Positions 711 through 25,850 are shown, counted from the first letter of the stretch. The stretch is DNA of 25,850 nt from Thermoplasmatota archaeon (GCA_029762535.1 JARVGK010000037.1:1-25850), one strand, 5' to 3'. Program-made: numbers and translations. Notes: generated by a model from the letters alone, not told the origin.

Positions 711-788
711 AGCGGGGTGGGGTAGCCAGGATATCCCGTCGGGCTCATAACCCGAAGACCAATAGTTCAAATCTATTCCCCGCTACCA
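711..788 (+). tRNA. Initiator tRNA-Met (CAT), CCA encoded
   Basis: Acceptor stem AGCGGGG/CCCCGCT with A1-U72; anticodon CAT at 746-748 in a stem with three G-C pairs (GGG/CCC); T-loop TTCAAAT; ends ACCA. Confidence 0.97.
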
Positions 789-4523: not shown

Positions 4524-4551
4524 TTTCACACCTCGATAGTTACGGTAAGAG

Positions 4552-4624
4552 TGCCGTGGGAGTGATTTGAACACCCGACCTTCTGATCTTCAGTCAGACG
4601 CTCTCCCAGCTGAGCTACCACGGC
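4552..4624 (-). tRNA. tRNA-Phe (GAA), no encoded CCA
   Basis: Reverse complement GCCGTGGTAGCTCAGCTGGGAGAGCGTCTGACTGAAGATCAGAAGGTCGGGTGTTCAAATCACTCCCACGGCA; anticodon GAA at 4591-4589. Confidence 0.97.
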
Positions 4625-7057: not shown

Positions 7058-10000
7058 TCAGGTCTTTTTTCTGACATAGATTACGACCATGAGGACGGCG
7101 GCGATGATGACGAAGGCCGCAAGGGGGGCAGCCAAGAACATATCGATGCCTGCTACGTCCTTATCCTCCTCTTTTACATGTATCGATAGGGTGCCCTTTC
7201 CTTCGTTCATAAATGGATCGAGAACGCTCAACCGAAGCTTGTACAGGCCATGGTCGAGGGACCTGGGGAGGGGCCATGAGGCTCGGAAAAGATCATTCTC
7301 GAACTCTATAAGGTTGTGATGAACGGACCCCTGCAACACCTGGGACCCTGAATCATCTTCCAGCACCCAGATGATCCCGTCCACCATGGAGTCATCCATT
7401 GCCTCGAGTATGACCCTTCTCTCGCCAGTTTTAGGGTCAAGTTCCGTATCGAGCCTCATTATGACCGGGGCGAGATCATCCACCAATTTGAGAGCTATTG
7501 ATAGCATTGCCTCGTTCCCGGACCCGTCCATTGCTTTGAGTATGAAGTGATACGTTTCCATGTGCGATATTATCAGGGAGGTGGTCTTAGGAACTCCATC
7601 GATCAGGGATATCGCATCAGTCGAATAATAGAAGGTCTTCTGGGACAATAGATGGGATATATCCTCGTACGATGCGCCGGAATCATGGGAGATATGCAAG
7701 GATAACTCGTCCGAATCATCGATGATATGCCCGGATATCTCCAAGACCGACCTAATATCGATCGGGGCGCCCGCAGAAGGACTTGTCACCACGATGACCG
7801 GATCATCCCTATCGATCGAAGGTTGGTCCCTGGAGAAGATCTCGACGCGAACGCTCGCTGTGGCGCTGTTGTTCGACAGGTCAGTGGCCTCAACACGTAT
7901 CACTGCCCCTCCCGCGGGCCATGAGGAGGTATCCTCCGTGAACTGCCATGAATAACCCTGGTAGGAGGCGATCATGTCCTTTACGCCGTTGGGGGTATGG
8001 ACGATCAGGGATGACAGGCCGCCGCTGTCAAAAGCATTGCCCCTTACGGTGATCACATCGCCCTTGAATATCCTCTGGCCGTTCTTCGGGTCGTTTATCT
8101 CCACCAATGGAGGAGTTGTATCCGGTGGGGGCATGAGCGTGACGTTCATGATCTCCACCGAGTAGAGTCCGACATTGTCCGTCGCGTTGAGAACGAACGG
8201 ATACGGCCCGGGCTCCGGCCCGATCGAGGCAGTATATGAGAACGTGCCATCCTCCTTCATCTCCCGCGTGATATCGATCGCCCTTCCCTCCACTTCGAGC
8301 GCTAGGGCCTTGACCATTACATCATCCGATACCCTTCCGGTGATCTCGACCGTCGTCTCGCTGGTCGAGAAGTCCTTAGCTGGGGAGAATAGTTCGATCG
8401 CTGGAGGCGAGGCGATGAAGTTCGAGTTGAACACCAATGTGGTGATGTGATGTTCAGGATCCCAGGTGCTGATGCGCAATCTGTGCCGTCCAGAGGTGAA
8501 AAGGGAAGAATCAAGATCCCCTGTCGGATGTCTTCCACGCGTCCGATCGAACGACCCAGACCATATCAGTTCATCATCCATCCATCCGATGGAATGCAGG
8601 ATCGTGCTCATATCGTAGTAATGTGCCCCGAAGGCGAATGTGGATCCCCAACTTTGAGCTCCCGATCCTGTATAGCTGCTCCATAAGGGCCTCACCGTAT
8701 CCAGGAATTCCAATCCGAATGGCATGGCCAGATCGACGGGGCCGGTATCTAGGGTGATGTTCAGGACAACGAGCATATCCTTGGTCCCGGCCATTGAAAC
8801 GTGGAATCCAGTTGTGGACCATGTGATGAACATCGCATATTGGTGCTCGAAGGACCCATAGATTGTCGGGTATTGGTAACCCGTTGATGCCTCAACGATC
8901 CCGATCTTGAAATTGTCAATATCATCTTGCCACGCCCTCTCCGGGACTATGGCCATACCGAAGACCACGGGGTCGGGATCAAGAAGATCAGGGCCCGAGA
9001 TCCCCACATTCGGGTAGGTTATCAGATCTTTCTCCCCGGGATCGATCCTGCCGTTGATCCTGACCCTTACGAAGGCCGAGGTCGATATCGACCCGGTGTT
9101 CCGTATCACGAGGACCGCATTACCGCCGTGGTGGAAGGACATGACATCGATATAGGGATCATTGGAGGTGGTCGACCTCGAATAACTCCCGTAGCCCCCC
9201 CCTTCATCAACGTAACACAAAACCGGCGGTCCCTCCACATTTTGCCTGTAGGAAGCCCCCGATAGGAAACATGTGTGCTCCTGCATGCCTTGCAGAACCT
9301 CCACGAAGACGGGGTGTGCCTCATCGAAAGATGACCTGTAGAGATCCCTGCCCGGATCCTGCCTCGGGGCGATGCCGGTGAGCGTGACGAAGATCTCCTT
9401 GTGTTCATCATCCCCCATGCCGAACTTCTGGCTAACGAACGACCCCAGGTCCGAGGTCACCACGATGTTGAAGTTCTGTCTCCATACGTTGAGGACAACG
9501 CGCCCGTGGCTGTCCGTATAACCCCATATCGCTGGGAGCGGCGCGGTGACCGGTGGAGGTGCCTGGTATGGTCCCAGGTCCACCGACATCTGCTCCATGG
9601 CCCAATGGGACATGACCAGGACCCTCGCCCCGTCCACGCTGACGCCCCTTGCATCCCGGACGTATACCGACAGGCTCCCCGTGACATCAGGGGGTCGATA
9701 AGCTGTCCCAACGTCCTCTACGGACCCGTCGCCCATCAAGGCGAACAGGCCGGAACCGCCCCTGCTCCCCCATTCCCACCAGTAGTTCATGGAATTGGCT
9801 ATCACACCACCGGAATCGGACCAGTAATTGTCCCATTGATGCCATCCACCGGCGTAGAACTCGGACCAAACGTGGTCCTCGCCCATCAGGAGCACTCCCC
9901 TTGCGGGGATCAGAGCGCATCTCGCGGCCGCAATGGTCAGGTCCTGAAGCTCCCCGCAGTTCCCGTTGTGCAGATGTGCGATCCTAACAGGCTGGTTCGG

Positions 10001-21730: not shown

Positions 21731-24700
21731 TCATTGTTTTGGATCTTGGGCCACGGTCGTTGCCGGAGGCGAGGGTTGGGTAGGTGCCTGCGTAGCAGGA
21801 GGAGGCATCACCGATATCCTATTGGGCAACTGGCCGGCACTGACAGGAGCGTTAATCGATTGGGAGGGTATATTTTCATCAGGGCCTTCACCCTCGCTCA
21901 CCTTCTCTTCAGGAGGCTTCTCCATCTTGCCCCTGACGAAGAACATGACCGCCGCACCTATCGCCAATCCGATGAGTAGGAATATTATGATGAAGATTAC
22001 AAGCAGCCCGATCCCAACCTTGCCTGTATCAGATGAGACCTCTTTGATCATGAGGTCAGTGGGATGAGTTTGTGCCTCATATCCGATCGTATCGAAGCCG
22101 GCGATGATCATCCCATCCTCAGTGCTCATATACGATGTTGTGGCGTACATCCTCAGGGGCATGGAGACCCCTGCCTGTTCCAGGTCAGTCATAGGAATGG
22201 TCCATTCTATCTGACTACCGTTGACGGTAGGCGACCCATATGAATTTCGTTCCCCCAATGAAAGATAGCTCTCTTCCGCAAGAAGGTAGGTCAGACCTCT
22301 TGAAGGTCTCATCATATCGATATTGTCGATGCTTAGTTTGGATTGATCGTAATCCTGCTCACGGAATGAGTTCTTTACGAAGAAAACCCTGTACATACCT
22401 TTGGCGCCGGATTGGTCCCAACCATATCCTTCCGGGACTGGGTTTGAACCCAATGTCATCGTGATGAAGGCGAACTCATCATCGGCCGTGCACTCAAGTT
22501 TCGTAATGTTGATCTCCGGGATGTCGGTGTTGTCGGCCTGTGAAGGTAAACCATCAGCGTTTCGAATTTCCATCCTCACAGGAGGCGTGTTCTTTTCATA
22601 CAGCGTGTGGATCTCCTCGATCGAGTATGGGGGTTCCGGTTTCTCGATCGTGAGGGATATCTCCCCAATCTGAACGAGGAATTCCCCATCGTTCACGGTG
22701 CAGGTTATGAGGTATTCGCCGGGCTCATCGATCCTATACTTCATCTCCTTCGTCGTTCCGATCTCCTTTCCGTCGAGCTTCCATGAATAGGCTATCTCGA
22801 GCGGCCTGTTGTCCGAATCGGAGGCCTCTGCCTTTAGCCATATCTCATCTCCCCTCAGGAACTTCGCGACAGAAGGCGGTGATAATATGGACCCTATTGG
22901 TGGATCGTTGACGGGGTTCACATATATGGTGATGTTGAATCTCAGCTCCGACTGACCGTCCGTTACCGTGACAGGTACCGTCTTCGTTCCTGTGTAATTC
23001 TCACGAGGCATGATGATCAGTCTCAACGTGGAGGGATCCACCTCGAGATCGATATCCTCATAGATATCGAAGGTGAACTGGAGTTCATCATCGTCCTTGT
23101 CTCTGATAAGTTCGGAGAGATCGATCTGCTCATCATCGACATGGTCCTCGTCAATTATGGCGTATATGTTCTCCTTGGTTGTCAGGGTCGGCGGAGAGTT
23201 CTTTATGATGACCTCTGCAGAATGGACCGCTGTATGGTTCAGCCCGTCGGTGGAGTTCACCTCCACCCTGATGACATCTTGCTTCTTCGTCGCTGAGGGA
23301 GGGATGATGACATTATCCAGATCCGATACTCTGACCTTGTTGAACTCGGACCTCTCCTCTTCGTTTATGAACACGCGATAAGTGTAATATATGGTTTCAA
23401 GGTCCCTGTCCGTGCTTGGGACCAAGAGAGCGGACCTTATGGTGGAGTCGGTGTACGCTGGCATGGGGGTCAATGAGATCCGCGGATCGGTCGGAGCGTT
23501 GTTCTCGACGATTATGGCATCTGCGATCGTTCTATGTGTGATCACTCCGAATATATCGGTGACCTTGATTATTATGCTATAATTTCCCAGAAGAGATTCG
23601 GCAGTTGGACGGAAATCGATGTAATATCTGTTCTCGTTCTCCACCAGCATGATGTTCTCGAAGTATTCATCTGAGACCGTGAATTTGTCCGGGCTCAAAT
23701 ACATGAATTCTACCTCCAGGTCCTTTGTAGGCTGGTCCGCATCAACAATAACTGCCGTTATCGTGATTCTATCGGTCCTGAGTACCCTATCAGGAATGAT
23801 GACCTCCCCTATGGTGGGATTGATATTTTGTCTCCAACTTGCTGCAAGGGTCTGTAACGTTGCAGAATTACCATTTATCCTGTAGAAAAAAACTCTGATC
23901 TGAATGATGCTGTTCAAAAAGGGATCGATCGATCTGATATTTACCGTGGGTCCTTCGTTCATTTTATAGGAGGTTATCACCTTACCTGTTTCCGCGTTGA
24001 GGATCTGGACCTCGAGCATATTCGTGCTCGATCCTTCGGCTTGGAAGTAGAGGTTCTCCCAATAGTTATTCGAAGCGAGAGAGATGTTCTTTGAAACGAA
24101 GTATCCCATCTGCTGACCGCTTTGCAGTCTTATTGTACCTTGTAATGTGTCAGTGGATTTCATATCGCTTGTATACAGATGAGTATTGAACGAGTCCCGC
24201 CAACCGGAGGATGAATGATAGTCGATGATGAAGGCATTAAGCATCGGAACGAGCCCGATCCTTCTCTTCACAGAGATATTCATGATGAATGTATCCACCT
24301 TCTTCTCGTTCAAGGGGCTCAGATCGATTAGCGTTACTCCTTGATAGGTGGGAAAACCATCTATTGGTGACCGGTCCGTTTTCATGATCGATATCGTGAT
24401 CCCATGGCAGGTATAAGAGGGATCTTTGAATATCACACTGCTCCATTGCATATTCGAGGGCAGGACTATAGGTTTAGTGATCGCATATGAATCGTTATAC
24501 TTCTCAAAGACTCTAAGGTCATCGAAGTAAGATGTTATATATGTGTAACCAACGCGTTTTCCGGCGATGAGACCGATCCTATTGAAGGTATCATGGTTGT
24601 TACTGAACTTGTATGTGGTCACATCGGAAGATGCACCATATTGGGAGGTGGTGGACAATTTAAATTCGTTCTTCGAGCAGTCGAATTCGATGTTCACGGT

Positions 24701-25342
24701 GTACCACGTGTTTGTGTATCCATAAAGCAGCTGATTCCATTTGGTATCATAAACGCTCAATGCGTTGTCAATAAAACCGATCCTTGTTATTATATCGGAG
24801 GCTTCCGGATTGTTGCTGGTGGATGCATACAGGTATATGAGGGTAGTCTCCTGGGTCTGGGGAGCAACGTAGTTCGTTCCCATCTTGATCGATATGTATC
24901 CCTTCGTCATCGAGAAATTCTCTGACAGGATATAGGATGCGGTAGTGGTGGATCCGCAATACTGGACCCCGATAGTCCCCCCAGTAGGTGTCATGGAAGA
25001 GTCTTTTTGGGCCGTGAATTGGCCCATATTATGCGTATCATGACGGGTCCATCCGTTCAGACCTATGAGTTCTTCGTTATCGTTATAGCTCTCGAAGTCC
25101 TCGAACGGGACCTCGTCCATGGGTTGGACCATGGAGGATTGGACTCTTGCATTTATGATTTCTTCAAGTCCGTCCTCATCATCGAAATCCTCTGTGATCT
25201 CTCCACCATATACGTCCGATACAATATCCGCTCTTGATAACACAGGTGGAGCGGGTGAAGGCTCATCAGCGATCGTTGCCAAGTTCACGAATGATATCGA
25301 GATCAGCCAAAGCACTACCAATATTCCAAGTCCCCTTTGCAA
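21731..25342 (-). CDS. Large surface-anchored beta-rich protein with Ig-like/cadherin (tandem-95-like)/PKD domains, C-terminal TM helix and Pro-rich tail
   Basis: Signal-like LQRGLGILVVLWL after a GGGGGT RBS (TTG 25342; frame open to 25381); NNAP, NSPP, IDED..DKDDDEL, VNPVNDPP and YSWKLDG motifs; TM helix IGLLVIFIIIFLLIGLAIGAAVMFFV; P/Q/A/T-rich tail. Confidence 0.85.
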   Translation of the reverse strand: MQRGLGILVVLWLISISFVNLATIADEPSPAPPVLSRADIVSDVYGGEITEDFDDEDGLEEIINARVQSSMVQPMDEVPFEDFESYNDNEELIGLNGWTRHDTHNMGQFTAQKDSSMTPTGGTIGVQYCGSTTTASYILSENFSMTKGYISIKMGTNYVAPQTQETTLIYLYASTSNNPEASDIITRIGFIDNALSVYDTKWNQLLYGYTNTWYTVNIEFDCSKNEFKLSTTSQYGASSDVTTYKFSNNHDTFNRIGLIAGKRVGYTYITSYFDDLRVFEKYNDSYAITKPIVLPSNMQWSSVIFKDPSYTCHGITISIMKTDRSPIDGFPTYQGVTLIDLSPLNEKKVDTFIMNISVKRRIGLVPMLNAFIIDYHSSSGWRDSFNTHLYTSDMKSTDTLQGTIRLQSGQQMGYFVSKNISLASNNYWENLYFQAEGSSTNMLEVQILNAETGKVITSYKMNEGPTVNIRSIDPFLNSIIQIRVFFYRINGNSATLQTLAASWRQNINPTIGEVIIPDRVLRTDRITITAVIVDADQPTKDLEVEFMYLSPDKFTVSDEYFENIMLVENENRYYIDFRPTAESLLGNYSIIIKVTDIFGVITHRTIADAIIVENNAPTDPRISLTPMPAYTDSTIRSALLVPSTDRDLETIYYTYRVFINEEERSEFNKVRVSDLDNVIIPPSATKKQDVIRVEVNSTDGLNHTAVHSAEVIIKNSPPTLTTKENIYAIIDEDHVDDEQIDLSELIRDKDDDELQFTFDIYEDIDLEVDPSTLRLIIMPRENYTGTKTVPVTVTDGQSELRFNITIYVNPVNDPPIGSILSPPSVAKFLRGDEIWLKAEASDSDNRPLEIAYSWKLDGKEIGTTKEMKYRIDEPGEYLITCTVNDGEFLVQIGEISLTIEKPEPPYSIEEIHTLYEKNTPPVRMEIRNADGLPSQADNTDIPEINITKLECTADDEFAFITMTLGSNPVPEGYGWDQSGAKGMYRVFFVKNSFREQDYDQSKLSIDNIDMMRPSRGLTYLLAEESYLSLGERNSYGSPTVNGSQIEWTIPMTDLEQAGVSMPLRMYATTSYMSTEDGMIIAGFDTIGYEAQTHPTDLMIKEVSSDTGKVGIGLLVIFIIIFLLIGLAIGAAVMFFVRGKMEKPPEEKVSEGEGPDENIPSQSINAPVSAGQLPNRISVMPPPATQAPTQPSPPATTVAQDPKQ

Positions 25343-25548
25343 TGTTATTACCCCCTGATGTAAATGGAAAACATCCGGCACCCGTCAAATGTATTCCCAT
25401 CCATCCTTGTTAAGGCCCAGACTGTTATTTATATGTTATGAATGGCCATCAGCATCAAGGAGACTAAATCATAGATAACACCTTCTTTATTTGACGAATA
25501 GGCCGAAGGTTGGCAGTGGGTTCATATCCCTATCGTCAATATCTAGCG

Positions 25549-25576
25549 TTACATCAATGAGTATTACATCAATGAG
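25549..25576. repeat. 13-bp direct repeat pair TTACATCAATGAG (15-bp period)
   Basis: Identical copies at 25549-25561 and 25564-25576. Confidence 0.85.
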
Positions 25577-25585
25577 AAGATGTTG

Positions 25586-25850
25586 GTGCTTCCGTCGGGA
25601 CCTTTTGATCGTCCTCTCGTTGACGATAATTCAGATCCAAAGGTTCAGGAAAATGCCCAACGGGCATTTTTCGTATCTCAGCATCCTCTAGCATCTTTTC
25701 ACGTGAACGATCATGATCGACGAAAGTGATAAGATGCGAAAAGGGAGCACGACTATAAGCAATTAGAAGTTGAGTGCTTCCGTCGGGACCTTTTGATCGT
25801 CCTCTCGTTGACGATAATTCAGATCCAAAGGTTCAGGAAAATGCCCAACG
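25586..25850 (+). repeat. Non-coding structured tandem repeat, 188-bp period (one full ~165-nt unit plus a truncated second copy)
   Basis: 25586-25662 is identical to 25774-25850 (77 bp, running to the window end). The unit contains four inverted-repeat stems. Confidence 0.9.

Follow-up and report, generated by a model that had tools for sequence, protein, structure and literature searches.

At the end of the stretch of DNA analysed here stands a hairpin-rich tandem repeat, and the question that it raises is what kind of element it is, a structured RNA or a unit that is handled as DNA. The window, by which we mean the whole stretch of 25,850 nt, corresponds to contig C33:1-25850 of a Thermoplasmatota genome of 2.96 Mb that is 93% complete (G000, the source genome). 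An earlier note made from the sequence had described a tandem multi-hairpin unit there, and had proposed a four-way-junction non-coding RNA read from the plus strand or, alternatively, a non-autonomous mobile or REP-like element. The description itself was accurate. The two strands of the closing stem (GTGCTTCC at 25586-25593 and GGGAGCAC at 25743-25750), the three hairpins that they enclose and the restart of the unit at 25774 are all where they had been placed, and the boundary of the repeat is also the boundary of the structure. The start-to-start spacing is exactly 188 nt, and positions 25586-25662 and 25774-25850 are 100% identical over 77 nt. The second copy is incomplete, because a scaffold gap of 100 N (contig C33, 25851-25950) follows the last base of the window. 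Tandem Repeats Finder did not report the repeat in the window because the window holds fewer than 1.5 copies.

The unit of 165 nt has a predicted fold that consists of the closing stem and the three hairpins. On the plus strand its folding energy was -57.3 kcal/mol (z = -4.36), and none of 200 shuffled sequences folded as well; the corresponding values were -52.8 kcal/mol (z = -3.11) for the minus strand, and z = -2.79 when the unit was folded as DNA. Across these three runs, at most one in 200 shuffles equalled the real sequence. No coding signal was found in the unit, whose three short ORFs have no match to any Pfam family. A cmscan search of 25300-25850 against Rfam release 15 with E values up to 10 matched no family, RtT (RF00391) included, and what appeared at that limit was noise from snoRNA and miRNA models far under threshold. 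The unit is thus a multi-hairpin, non-coding element that matches no Rfam family, as had been suspected.

The neighbourhood of the repeat extends beyond the window. A tRNA-Glu(UUC) gene lies on the minus strand at 26210-26285 of contig C33, 360 nt past the window end. Between the scaffold gap and this gene we found the remainder of a repeat unit of the same kind (type B) and a different module of 189 nt (type A). In tRNA sense, the array therefore reads tRNA-Glu(UUC), A, B, gap, B and a truncated A (A'). The parts that fall within the window are the following, with hairpins numbered in tRNA sense.

25518 to 25585, minus strand: truncated A-type module A', which terminates the array distally and is homologous to the opening ~68 nt of the complete A module immediately behind tRNA-Glu(UUC); the motif TTGACGA..GGGATATGAACCC is present and the terminal tail copy is absent
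25586 to 25600, minus strand: tail copy ('core') that closes the first B unit, TCCCGACGGAAGCAC in tRNA sense, equal to the last 15 nt of tRNA-Glu(UUC) except for one G>A
25598 to 25646, minus strand: hairpin 3 of B (the first hairpin in the earlier note), a 13-bp stem that abuts the tail copy, its loop containing a small inner stem together with the conserved motif ATCGTCAA
25650 to 25670, minus strand: hairpin 2 of B, AAAATGCCC-loop-GGGCATTTT, of the GGAAAAT..ATTTTCC type that is common to most module types of the source genome
25691 to 25737, minus strand: hairpin 1 of B, a 12-bp stem with a loop that contains the palindrome CGATCATGATCG and the conserved motif TTTCGTCGAT
25743 to 25750, minus strand: the tRNA tail in inverted form, which reads GTGCTCCC in tRNA sense
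25751 to 25773, minus strand: linker of 23 nt, TCAACTTCTAATTGCTTATAGTC in tRNA sense, which resembles the start of the tRNA 3' flank (the start of the A module)
25774 to 25850, minus strand: distal 77 nt of the next B unit, comprising a tail copy (25774-25788), hairpin 3 as well as one half of hairpin 2; the unit is interrupted by the window end and the 100-N gap

The tandem arrangement is supported by a 132-nt unitig from the probable source metagenome, since it runs from the unit interior through the 23-nt spacer into the first 5 nt of the next unit, across the junction at 25750-25774, with zero differences. Its depth was 47.7, against 13.6 and 12.8 for the single-copy flanks, in a metagenome run that is not independent of the assembly. 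There are at least two B copies and likely three to four, a number for which contig depth gives a hint only. Among the Logan contigs of four DNA runs, none crossed the whole array, and the joints that were seen belong to paralogous loci with ~87% identity and are not variants of this one. Two ORFs flank the locus. One of 1216 aa (window 21731-25381, minus strand), directly past the distal end of the array, has a hydrophobic segment at the N terminus and what resembles a transmembrane stretch at the C terminus, and probably encodes a large surface protein. The other, upstream of tRNA-Glu (L001 2381-3187; C33 26466 onward, plus strand), starts with MESKLGRGLGALI, which we take to be a ParB-like N-terminal motif.

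Analysis of module borders at six loci of the source genome showed that every complete module terminates by repeating the final 15 nt of the tRNA, so that the tRNA gene itself stays intact. The copied tail comprises the 3' strand of the T-stem, the 3' strand of the acceptor stem, A73 and C74, and for tRNA-Glu(UUC) it reads TCCCGACGGGAGCAC. In tRNA sense, a B module is composed of the 23-nt linker, the inverted tail GTGCTCCC, hairpins 1, 2 and 3, and the tail copy. What had been read as a closing stem thus forms when the inverted copy pairs with the tail copy at the end of its own module; as an alternative partner, the inverted copy has the tail copy 23 nt upstream in tRNA sense. The Glu-type B module carries this inverted copy near its start, with Watson-Crick complementarity to the tail. 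The B modules behind Gly, Leu and Ser tRNAs have neither the linker nor the inverted copy, and the four-way junction is therefore not general to the module family. Of 11 cases from tRNA-Ala arrays, the inverted copy places A opposite U70 in 10 and reproduces G3 of the tRNA in none, which indicates that the inverted copy mirrors the tail and is not a remnant of the tRNA 5' end. For this reason we rejected a degenerate tRNA copy, that is, a pseudo-tRNA that keeps both ends, as its 5' element is not a copy of the 5' acceptor strand. Many tail copies are followed by a T-rich tract, as is found behind the tRNA itself, and no promoter conservation was detected in the linker. A CRISPR array was also rejected, since the apparent spacers are homologous modules; the true CRISPR array of this genome, on contig C5, has a 36-nt repeat.

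Arrays of this kind are found behind about half of the tRNA genes of the source genome (~20 of 40). When each tRNA was searched for copies of its own tail, 19 of the 40 tRNAs predicted by ARAGORN were found to carry one to five modules of 80-190 nt that end in that tail, and further arrays follow tRNA-Ser(UGA), an intron-bearing tRNA-Ser and tRNA-Trp. The genome contains several module types. A BLAST search with the B unit, as the earlier note had proposed, found relatives at eight loci, and all B copies in this genome sit behind tRNAs; a covariance model built from B (R1) detected 19 copies. No modules were found behind the two tRNA genes inside the window, tRNA-Met (711-788, plus strand), which is followed by a T-rich tract, and tRNA-Phe (4551-4624, minus strand), which is directly followed by a coding gene. 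Neither of the two 5S rRNA genes of the source genome has modules behind it. The modules that end arrays are truncated, and arrays break the assembly at several loci, where 100-N gaps are found. An exact 15-nt match to the tail of tRNA-Arg(UCU) on contig C6 was set aside, as it lies inside a coding region. In the tRNA-Ser(UGA) array (C47 81399-81901), internal modules end in ATCCCTGCACTCGTAC and not in the tRNA-Ser tail, the true tail being present only in the last module; these ends may be remnants of a Leu-type tail.

The modules are not restricted to this genome. R1 matched all 24 genomes of the family that were searched, with 4-23 matches each, and two of 13 other genomes of the class. Among the loci fetched from relatives, a tRNA gene lies upstream on the same strand for 38 of 41 R1 matches, and these tRNAs are Ala, Gly, Glu, Leu, Ser and Trp. 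The tails agree with the upstream tRNA in at least 13 of 15 nt in 33 of the 37 cases scored. Exact-pattern scans gave one match in a genome collection, in a Thermoplasmatota MAG; three patterns run against viral contigs detected no module, and two patterns run against JGI metagenome contigs gave nothing.

To evaluate the conservation of the hairpins, we aligned 14 sequences from four genomes with MAFFT, using 500 shuffles and slid pairings as controls. The proposed pairs were formed in 96% of the cells, and 23 of 31 pairs had changed on both sides, a result reached by none of the 500 shuffles; the slid controls gave 39-62%. Both-side changes were distributed over helix 1 (8/8 pairs, hairpin 1), helix 2 (6/9, hairpin 2) and helices 3 and 4 of hairpin 3 (9/11 outer pairs). 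The loops keep the motif TCGTC(A/G)A, which is found in tRNA sense in B modules and antisense in A modules. Both this motif and GGAAAAT are enriched 10-20 times in modules; for GGAAAAT we counted 22 and 21 occurrences on the two strands, compared with 0.9 expected per strand. The hairpins are thus maintained by compensatory change. The strand assignment of the earlier note was not borne out. Two G-U pairs had been taken to favour a plus-strand RNA. Across the modules of the source genome, however, the mispairs are G:T in 16 cases and A:C in nine, and in the 14-sequence alignment they occupy 13 and about nine cells, respectively. With no bias of G·U over A·C, a plus-strand RNA is unsupported. 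The upkeep of perfect Watson-Crick pairing would be more in keeping with recognition of the DNA itself than with a single-stranded RNA, and points to hairpins, cruciforms or symmetric binding sites as putative targets of such recognition. The conservation of the three hairpins in 24 genomes could equally reflect a function of cellular RNA.

The comparison of copies also gave information on how arrays change. The two B units are 100% identical and have in common a private G>A change in the tail that is absent from the A module, indicating that the B units multiplied locally after this change. In a tree of 52 B interiors from which the tails had been removed, sequences group by genome or genus and not by tRNA. 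Modules from seven tRNAs of the source genome form one clade (SH-aLRT 97), and the genus label requires 13 changes on the tree compared with a mean of 33 when shuffled. Interiors therefore appear to move or be converted between loci while tails stay local. The closest exchange was found between isoacceptor loci with similar tails, and related interiors at unlinked loci are about 75-83% identical. Copy number differs as well, since the orthologous tRNA-Gly(UCC) locus has one, one and at least four modules in three species of one genus. Distal tail copies are mutated more often, and tails decay while hairpins persist. In one array of a relative (G004), the distal modules carry the tail state of other genera and the proximal modules carry the present tail. 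In the tRNA-Gly(UCC) array of another relative (G003, locus L039), the first module ends in TCCCGGCACCCGCAC, which is the tRNA-Gly(GCC) tail of another genome and not the local tail; tails can thus travel with modules, and this one seems to have moved with its tail between isoacceptor arrays. A reading of the tails as time stamps is therefore a hint from one locus only, weakened by the foreign Gly-GCC-type tail.

We then looked for an enzyme that might act on the modules. The only Cas1 of the source genome is encoded beside the CRISPR array on contig C5, and Cas1 was found in five of the 24 family genomes and not in the other 19, which include genomes that are 95-97% complete. The C5 locus (L024 9004-14807) contains a Cas1 ORF of 555 aa beside the array, whose 36-nt repeat is CTCTCCATGGCCTTTTGGCCGTGGCCCCATTGAAGC; the ORF is unusually long and is perhaps a fusion. 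In the source genome (93% complete), no match to the Y1 transposase domain (PF01797) and no reverse transcriptase were found, TnpB (PF07282) gave a sub-threshold match only, and the one IS110 transposase is not near tRNAs. We therefore rejected a derivative of IS200/IS605-type elements or a REP, given that neither a Y1 (HUH) transposase nor an above-threshold TnpB is present. Tyrosine recombinases (PF00589) occur in 16 of the 24 family genomes, and the two families that we traced, in eight and four genomes respectively, do not track the modules.

One of these recombinases, of 270 aa, lies beside a tRNA array in a relative (G005). It was rejected as the enzyme of the modules, being present in eight of 24 genomes and having no tRNA within 1.5 kb at 11 of 12 loci. 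The family (loci L058-L071) is multi-copy in two genomes, with some copies broken by stop codons, and only the G005 copy adjoins a tRNA array. Given this patchy, multi-copy and partly stop-broken occurrence, it behaves like the integrase of a mobile element and not like a housekeeping XerA.

Integrase-bearing elements use the same tRNA tails as attachment sites. Integrase genes follow the arrays at tRNA-Ser(GCU) in G004 and at tRNA-Gly(UCC) in G005. In the source genome, the intron-bearing tRNA-Trp gene that ARAGORN missed (C53 ~7500-8098) is followed by an antisense fragment of a tyrosine integrase at the contig end, and a Trp-tailed A-A-B array begins another contig (C102, 1-810), behind a small ORF that by eye resembles a helix-turn-helix protein. 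An 18-nt block, ATCCCAGTGCCCCCACTT, which contains the tail, is found at both junctions. We infer that the two contigs, which are not joined in the assembly, adjoin, and the arrangement looks like an integrated element between tRNA-Trp and its older array. In a relative, B modules directly follow tRNA-Trp.

Taken together, the repeat unit in the window is best explained as a type-B module of a tRNA-anchored repeat system and not as a free-standing RNA gene. As to what the modules are, we give about an even chance to their being miniature DNA units, non-autonomous and without genes, that accumulate at the tails of tRNAs; they would be the archaeal equivalent of the tRNA-linked repeats of Escherichia coli. 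The proposed point of entry is where the T-loop meets the tail, whether in a tRNA gene or at a tail copy already in place, so that each unit would be bounded by tail copies in the manner of attachment-site repeats. Unequal recombination between tail copies would subsequently lengthen or shorten the arrays, and module interiors would be exchanged between tRNA loci within a genome. By analogy with the E. coli repeats, transcription from the tRNA promoter may also continue into the arrays. The alternative of a non-autonomous mobile or REP-like element, raised in the earlier note, was close to this reading. Against accreting DNA units stands the fact that no recombinase tracks the modules in the 24 family genomes, most recombinase copies being away from tRNAs. 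A tyrosine integrase would moreover need a site matched to the tRNA, yet related interiors are found with local tails behind at least eight tRNA species, a retargeting that the model leaves unexplained. One fixed pattern of cuts would not yield both the 15-nt copies of B modules and the copies of about 20 nt of A modules, and neither a circular form, nor an empty site to compare with a filled one, nor an excision joint was seen in the Logan contigs of the four DNA runs, for which contigs only were searched.

The main rival is that the modules are functional structured RNAs of the tRNA trailer, which would be transcribed by read-through from the tRNA promoter. The tail copy and the acceptor-like closing stem of each module would enable RNase Z, RNase P or the CCA-adding enzyme to release stable small RNAs, and these might serve as regulators or decoys, as proposed for rrA, rrB and rrF of E. 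coli. We consider this possible, if on balance unlikely. It would account for the co-orientation of modules directly behind tRNAs at the loci checked in the source genome and in relatives, for the strong covariation of three hairpins kept in 24 of 24 genomes, and for the T-rich tracts that follow many tail copies as they follow the tRNA itself. It also has a precedent, because read-through transcripts of the E. coli repeats behind rRNA operons are processed into sRNAs that bind Hfq and CsrA (PMC8144298). However, G:U and A:C mispairs are about equally frequent, unlike what is expected of a single-stranded RNA under selection, and distal tails decay while hairpins persist in arrays that end in truncated modules. 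Further, the interiors act like a repeat family that homogenises within each genome, the inverted copies mirror the DNA tail and not the 5' strand of the tRNA, and a promoter in the linker is not conserved. The other RNA reading, an independent four-way-junction RNA gene in tandem copies on the plus strand, was the first choice of the earlier note, and we now regard it as very improbable. The plus-strand fold is indeed the more stable one (-57.3 kcal/mol, z -4.36) and no Rfam family matches it, but the array is oriented with, and anchored on, a tRNA-Glu(UUC) gene of the opposite, minus strand, and its closing stem is made of the tRNA tail and the inverted copy. Neither this stem nor the junction is present in the B modules of Gly, Leu and Ser tRNAs, and the copies do not prefer wobble pairs on the plus strand.

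Other explanations invoke DNA in other ways. The arrays might be a passive by-product of tandem duplication and slippage, driven by palindromes and tails behind highly transcribed tRNAs and accompanied by gene conversion, with no insertion step and no function. The identity of adjacent B copies, the assembly breaks at several loci, the closeness of exchange between isoacceptor loci with similar tails and the fact that no dedicated enzyme was found are all in line with such an origin. It gives no account, however, of the origin of the initial tail copy at a tRNA that had none, of the constant position of module ends at the T-loop/tail boundary in at least eight tRNA species, of the compensatory upkeep of three stems across seven genera, or of the presence of related interiors (about 75-83% identity) at unlinked loci; we judge it improbable. 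Another proposal is that the modules are miniature casposon-like elements, inserted next to the T-loop by a Cas1-family integrase with a 15-bp target-site duplication. The 15-nt repeat does start right after the T-loop, and a target-site duplication would automatically match any tRNA; the casposase of Aciduliprofundum boonei makes a 15-bp duplication and needs an upstream segment of the T-psi-C loop, although that duplication overlaps the tRNA by 5 bp only (PMC5137440). The sole Cas1 of the source genome, however, stands beside the CRISPR array, and Cas1 is present in five of 24 family genomes compared with modules in all 24. About 20 nt are copied in A modules, and element-specific terminal inverted repeats are absent, the only inverted repeat being the copy of the target tail, which the Gly, Leu and Ser B modules lack. 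A casposon-like origin therefore has very little chance of being correct.

We also considered that machinery not described so far, independent of Cas1 and of any module-borne integrase, inserts fold-back DNA modules at the border next to the tRNA and makes a further copy of the tail with each insertion, an idea that we rate as rather unlikely. Several clues hint at it: the distal tails of the G004 array in the state of other genera and the proximal ones in the present state; the more frequent mutation of distal tails; and the integrase element between tRNA-Trp and its array, which would fit entry on the tRNA-proximal side, the order of events there being our interpretation. If such machinery existed, arrays would be ordered records of insertion, a CRISPR-like polar accretion seeded by tRNA tails, and it could explain the E. 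coli tRNA-linked repeats too.

Returning to accreting DNA units at tRNA tails as the preferred reading, the closest known system is that of E. coli. The tRNA-linked repeats of this bacterium include the 178-bp repeats of tyrT (RtT RNA) and rrA, rrB and rrF behind rRNA operons; they have been known since 1978, and we know of no accepted origin or function for them. They comprise 22 units at ten loci, with one to five units per locus, and the last 18-19 bp of a unit are the 3' end of the upstream gene (PMC8144298). Both systems consist of gene-less tandem units directly behind a stable-RNA gene, in the same orientation, with one to five units per locus and many loci per genome; in both, a unit finishes with the 3'-terminal bases of the gene that precedes it, 18-19 bp of them in E. 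coli and, here, 15 nt in B modules compared with about 20 nt in A modules, and in both, origin and function are unexplained. In contrast, the two have no homology in sequence or structure, RtT included, so the likeness is one of layout and not of descent. The host here is an archaeon, and its modules have covarying hairpins and, in some cases, an inverted copy of the tail. Behind the two 5S rRNA genes they are absent, and the share of tRNA genes that they occupy, about one half, greatly exceeds that in E. coli.

Likenesses to integrating elements are also evident. Aciduliprofundum boonei is, like the present organism, a Thermoplasmatota archaeon. Its casposon at tRNA-Pro, as noted above, has a 15-bp duplicated segment beside part of the T-psi-C loop, which recalls the 15-nt direct repeats of the B modules as a candidate target-site duplication, and its insertion is directional, at the tRNA-proximal border (PMC5137440), as module entry may be. 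It differs in that the duplicated segment lies mostly behind the tRNA and not inside it as in the modules, and in that no casposase or PolB partner was found here, Cas1 being missing in 19 of 24 genomes. Described archaeal elements integrated at tRNA genes are 9-23 kb long and bounded by repeats of about 44 bp (PMC9897764). As in tandem integrative elements at such sites, among them integrase-bearing elements and integrase-less ones mobilised in cis, the direct repeats correspond to the tRNA 3' end, the tRNA stays intact and units are stacked; in addition, integrase-bearing elements are found in or next to the same arrays, and the 18-nt repeat at tRNA-Trp contains the tail. The modules, however, with 80-190 nt, are far below the size of described integrative elements, have related interiors behind many tRNAs, and do not co-occur with any integrase. 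REP elements depend on a RAYT (Y1) transposase, and integrons on IntI and an attI site. REP/BIME elements and the attC sites of integrons are, like the modules, short non-coding palindromes with stems that covary as the sequence drifts, arranged in arrays behind genes; they are recognised as DNA hairpins, as the modules may be. Unlike the modules, neither copies the end of a neighbouring tRNA, and no Y1 transposase was found in the source genome.

The archaeal system is a far richer version of the E. coli tRNA-linked repeats. On the practical side, its arrays break assemblies, and the tRNA fragments that they leave can confuse the annotation of tRNAs and the mapping of integrated elements. For the biology of this family, the occupation of about half of the tRNA genes, the presence in 24 of 24 genomes, the several module types, the covarying hairpins and the conserved motifs in their loops provide ample natural variation, which allows one to ask where such repeats come from, whether they are selfish DNA or a source of processed RNA, and what enzyme singles out the junction of T-loop and tail.
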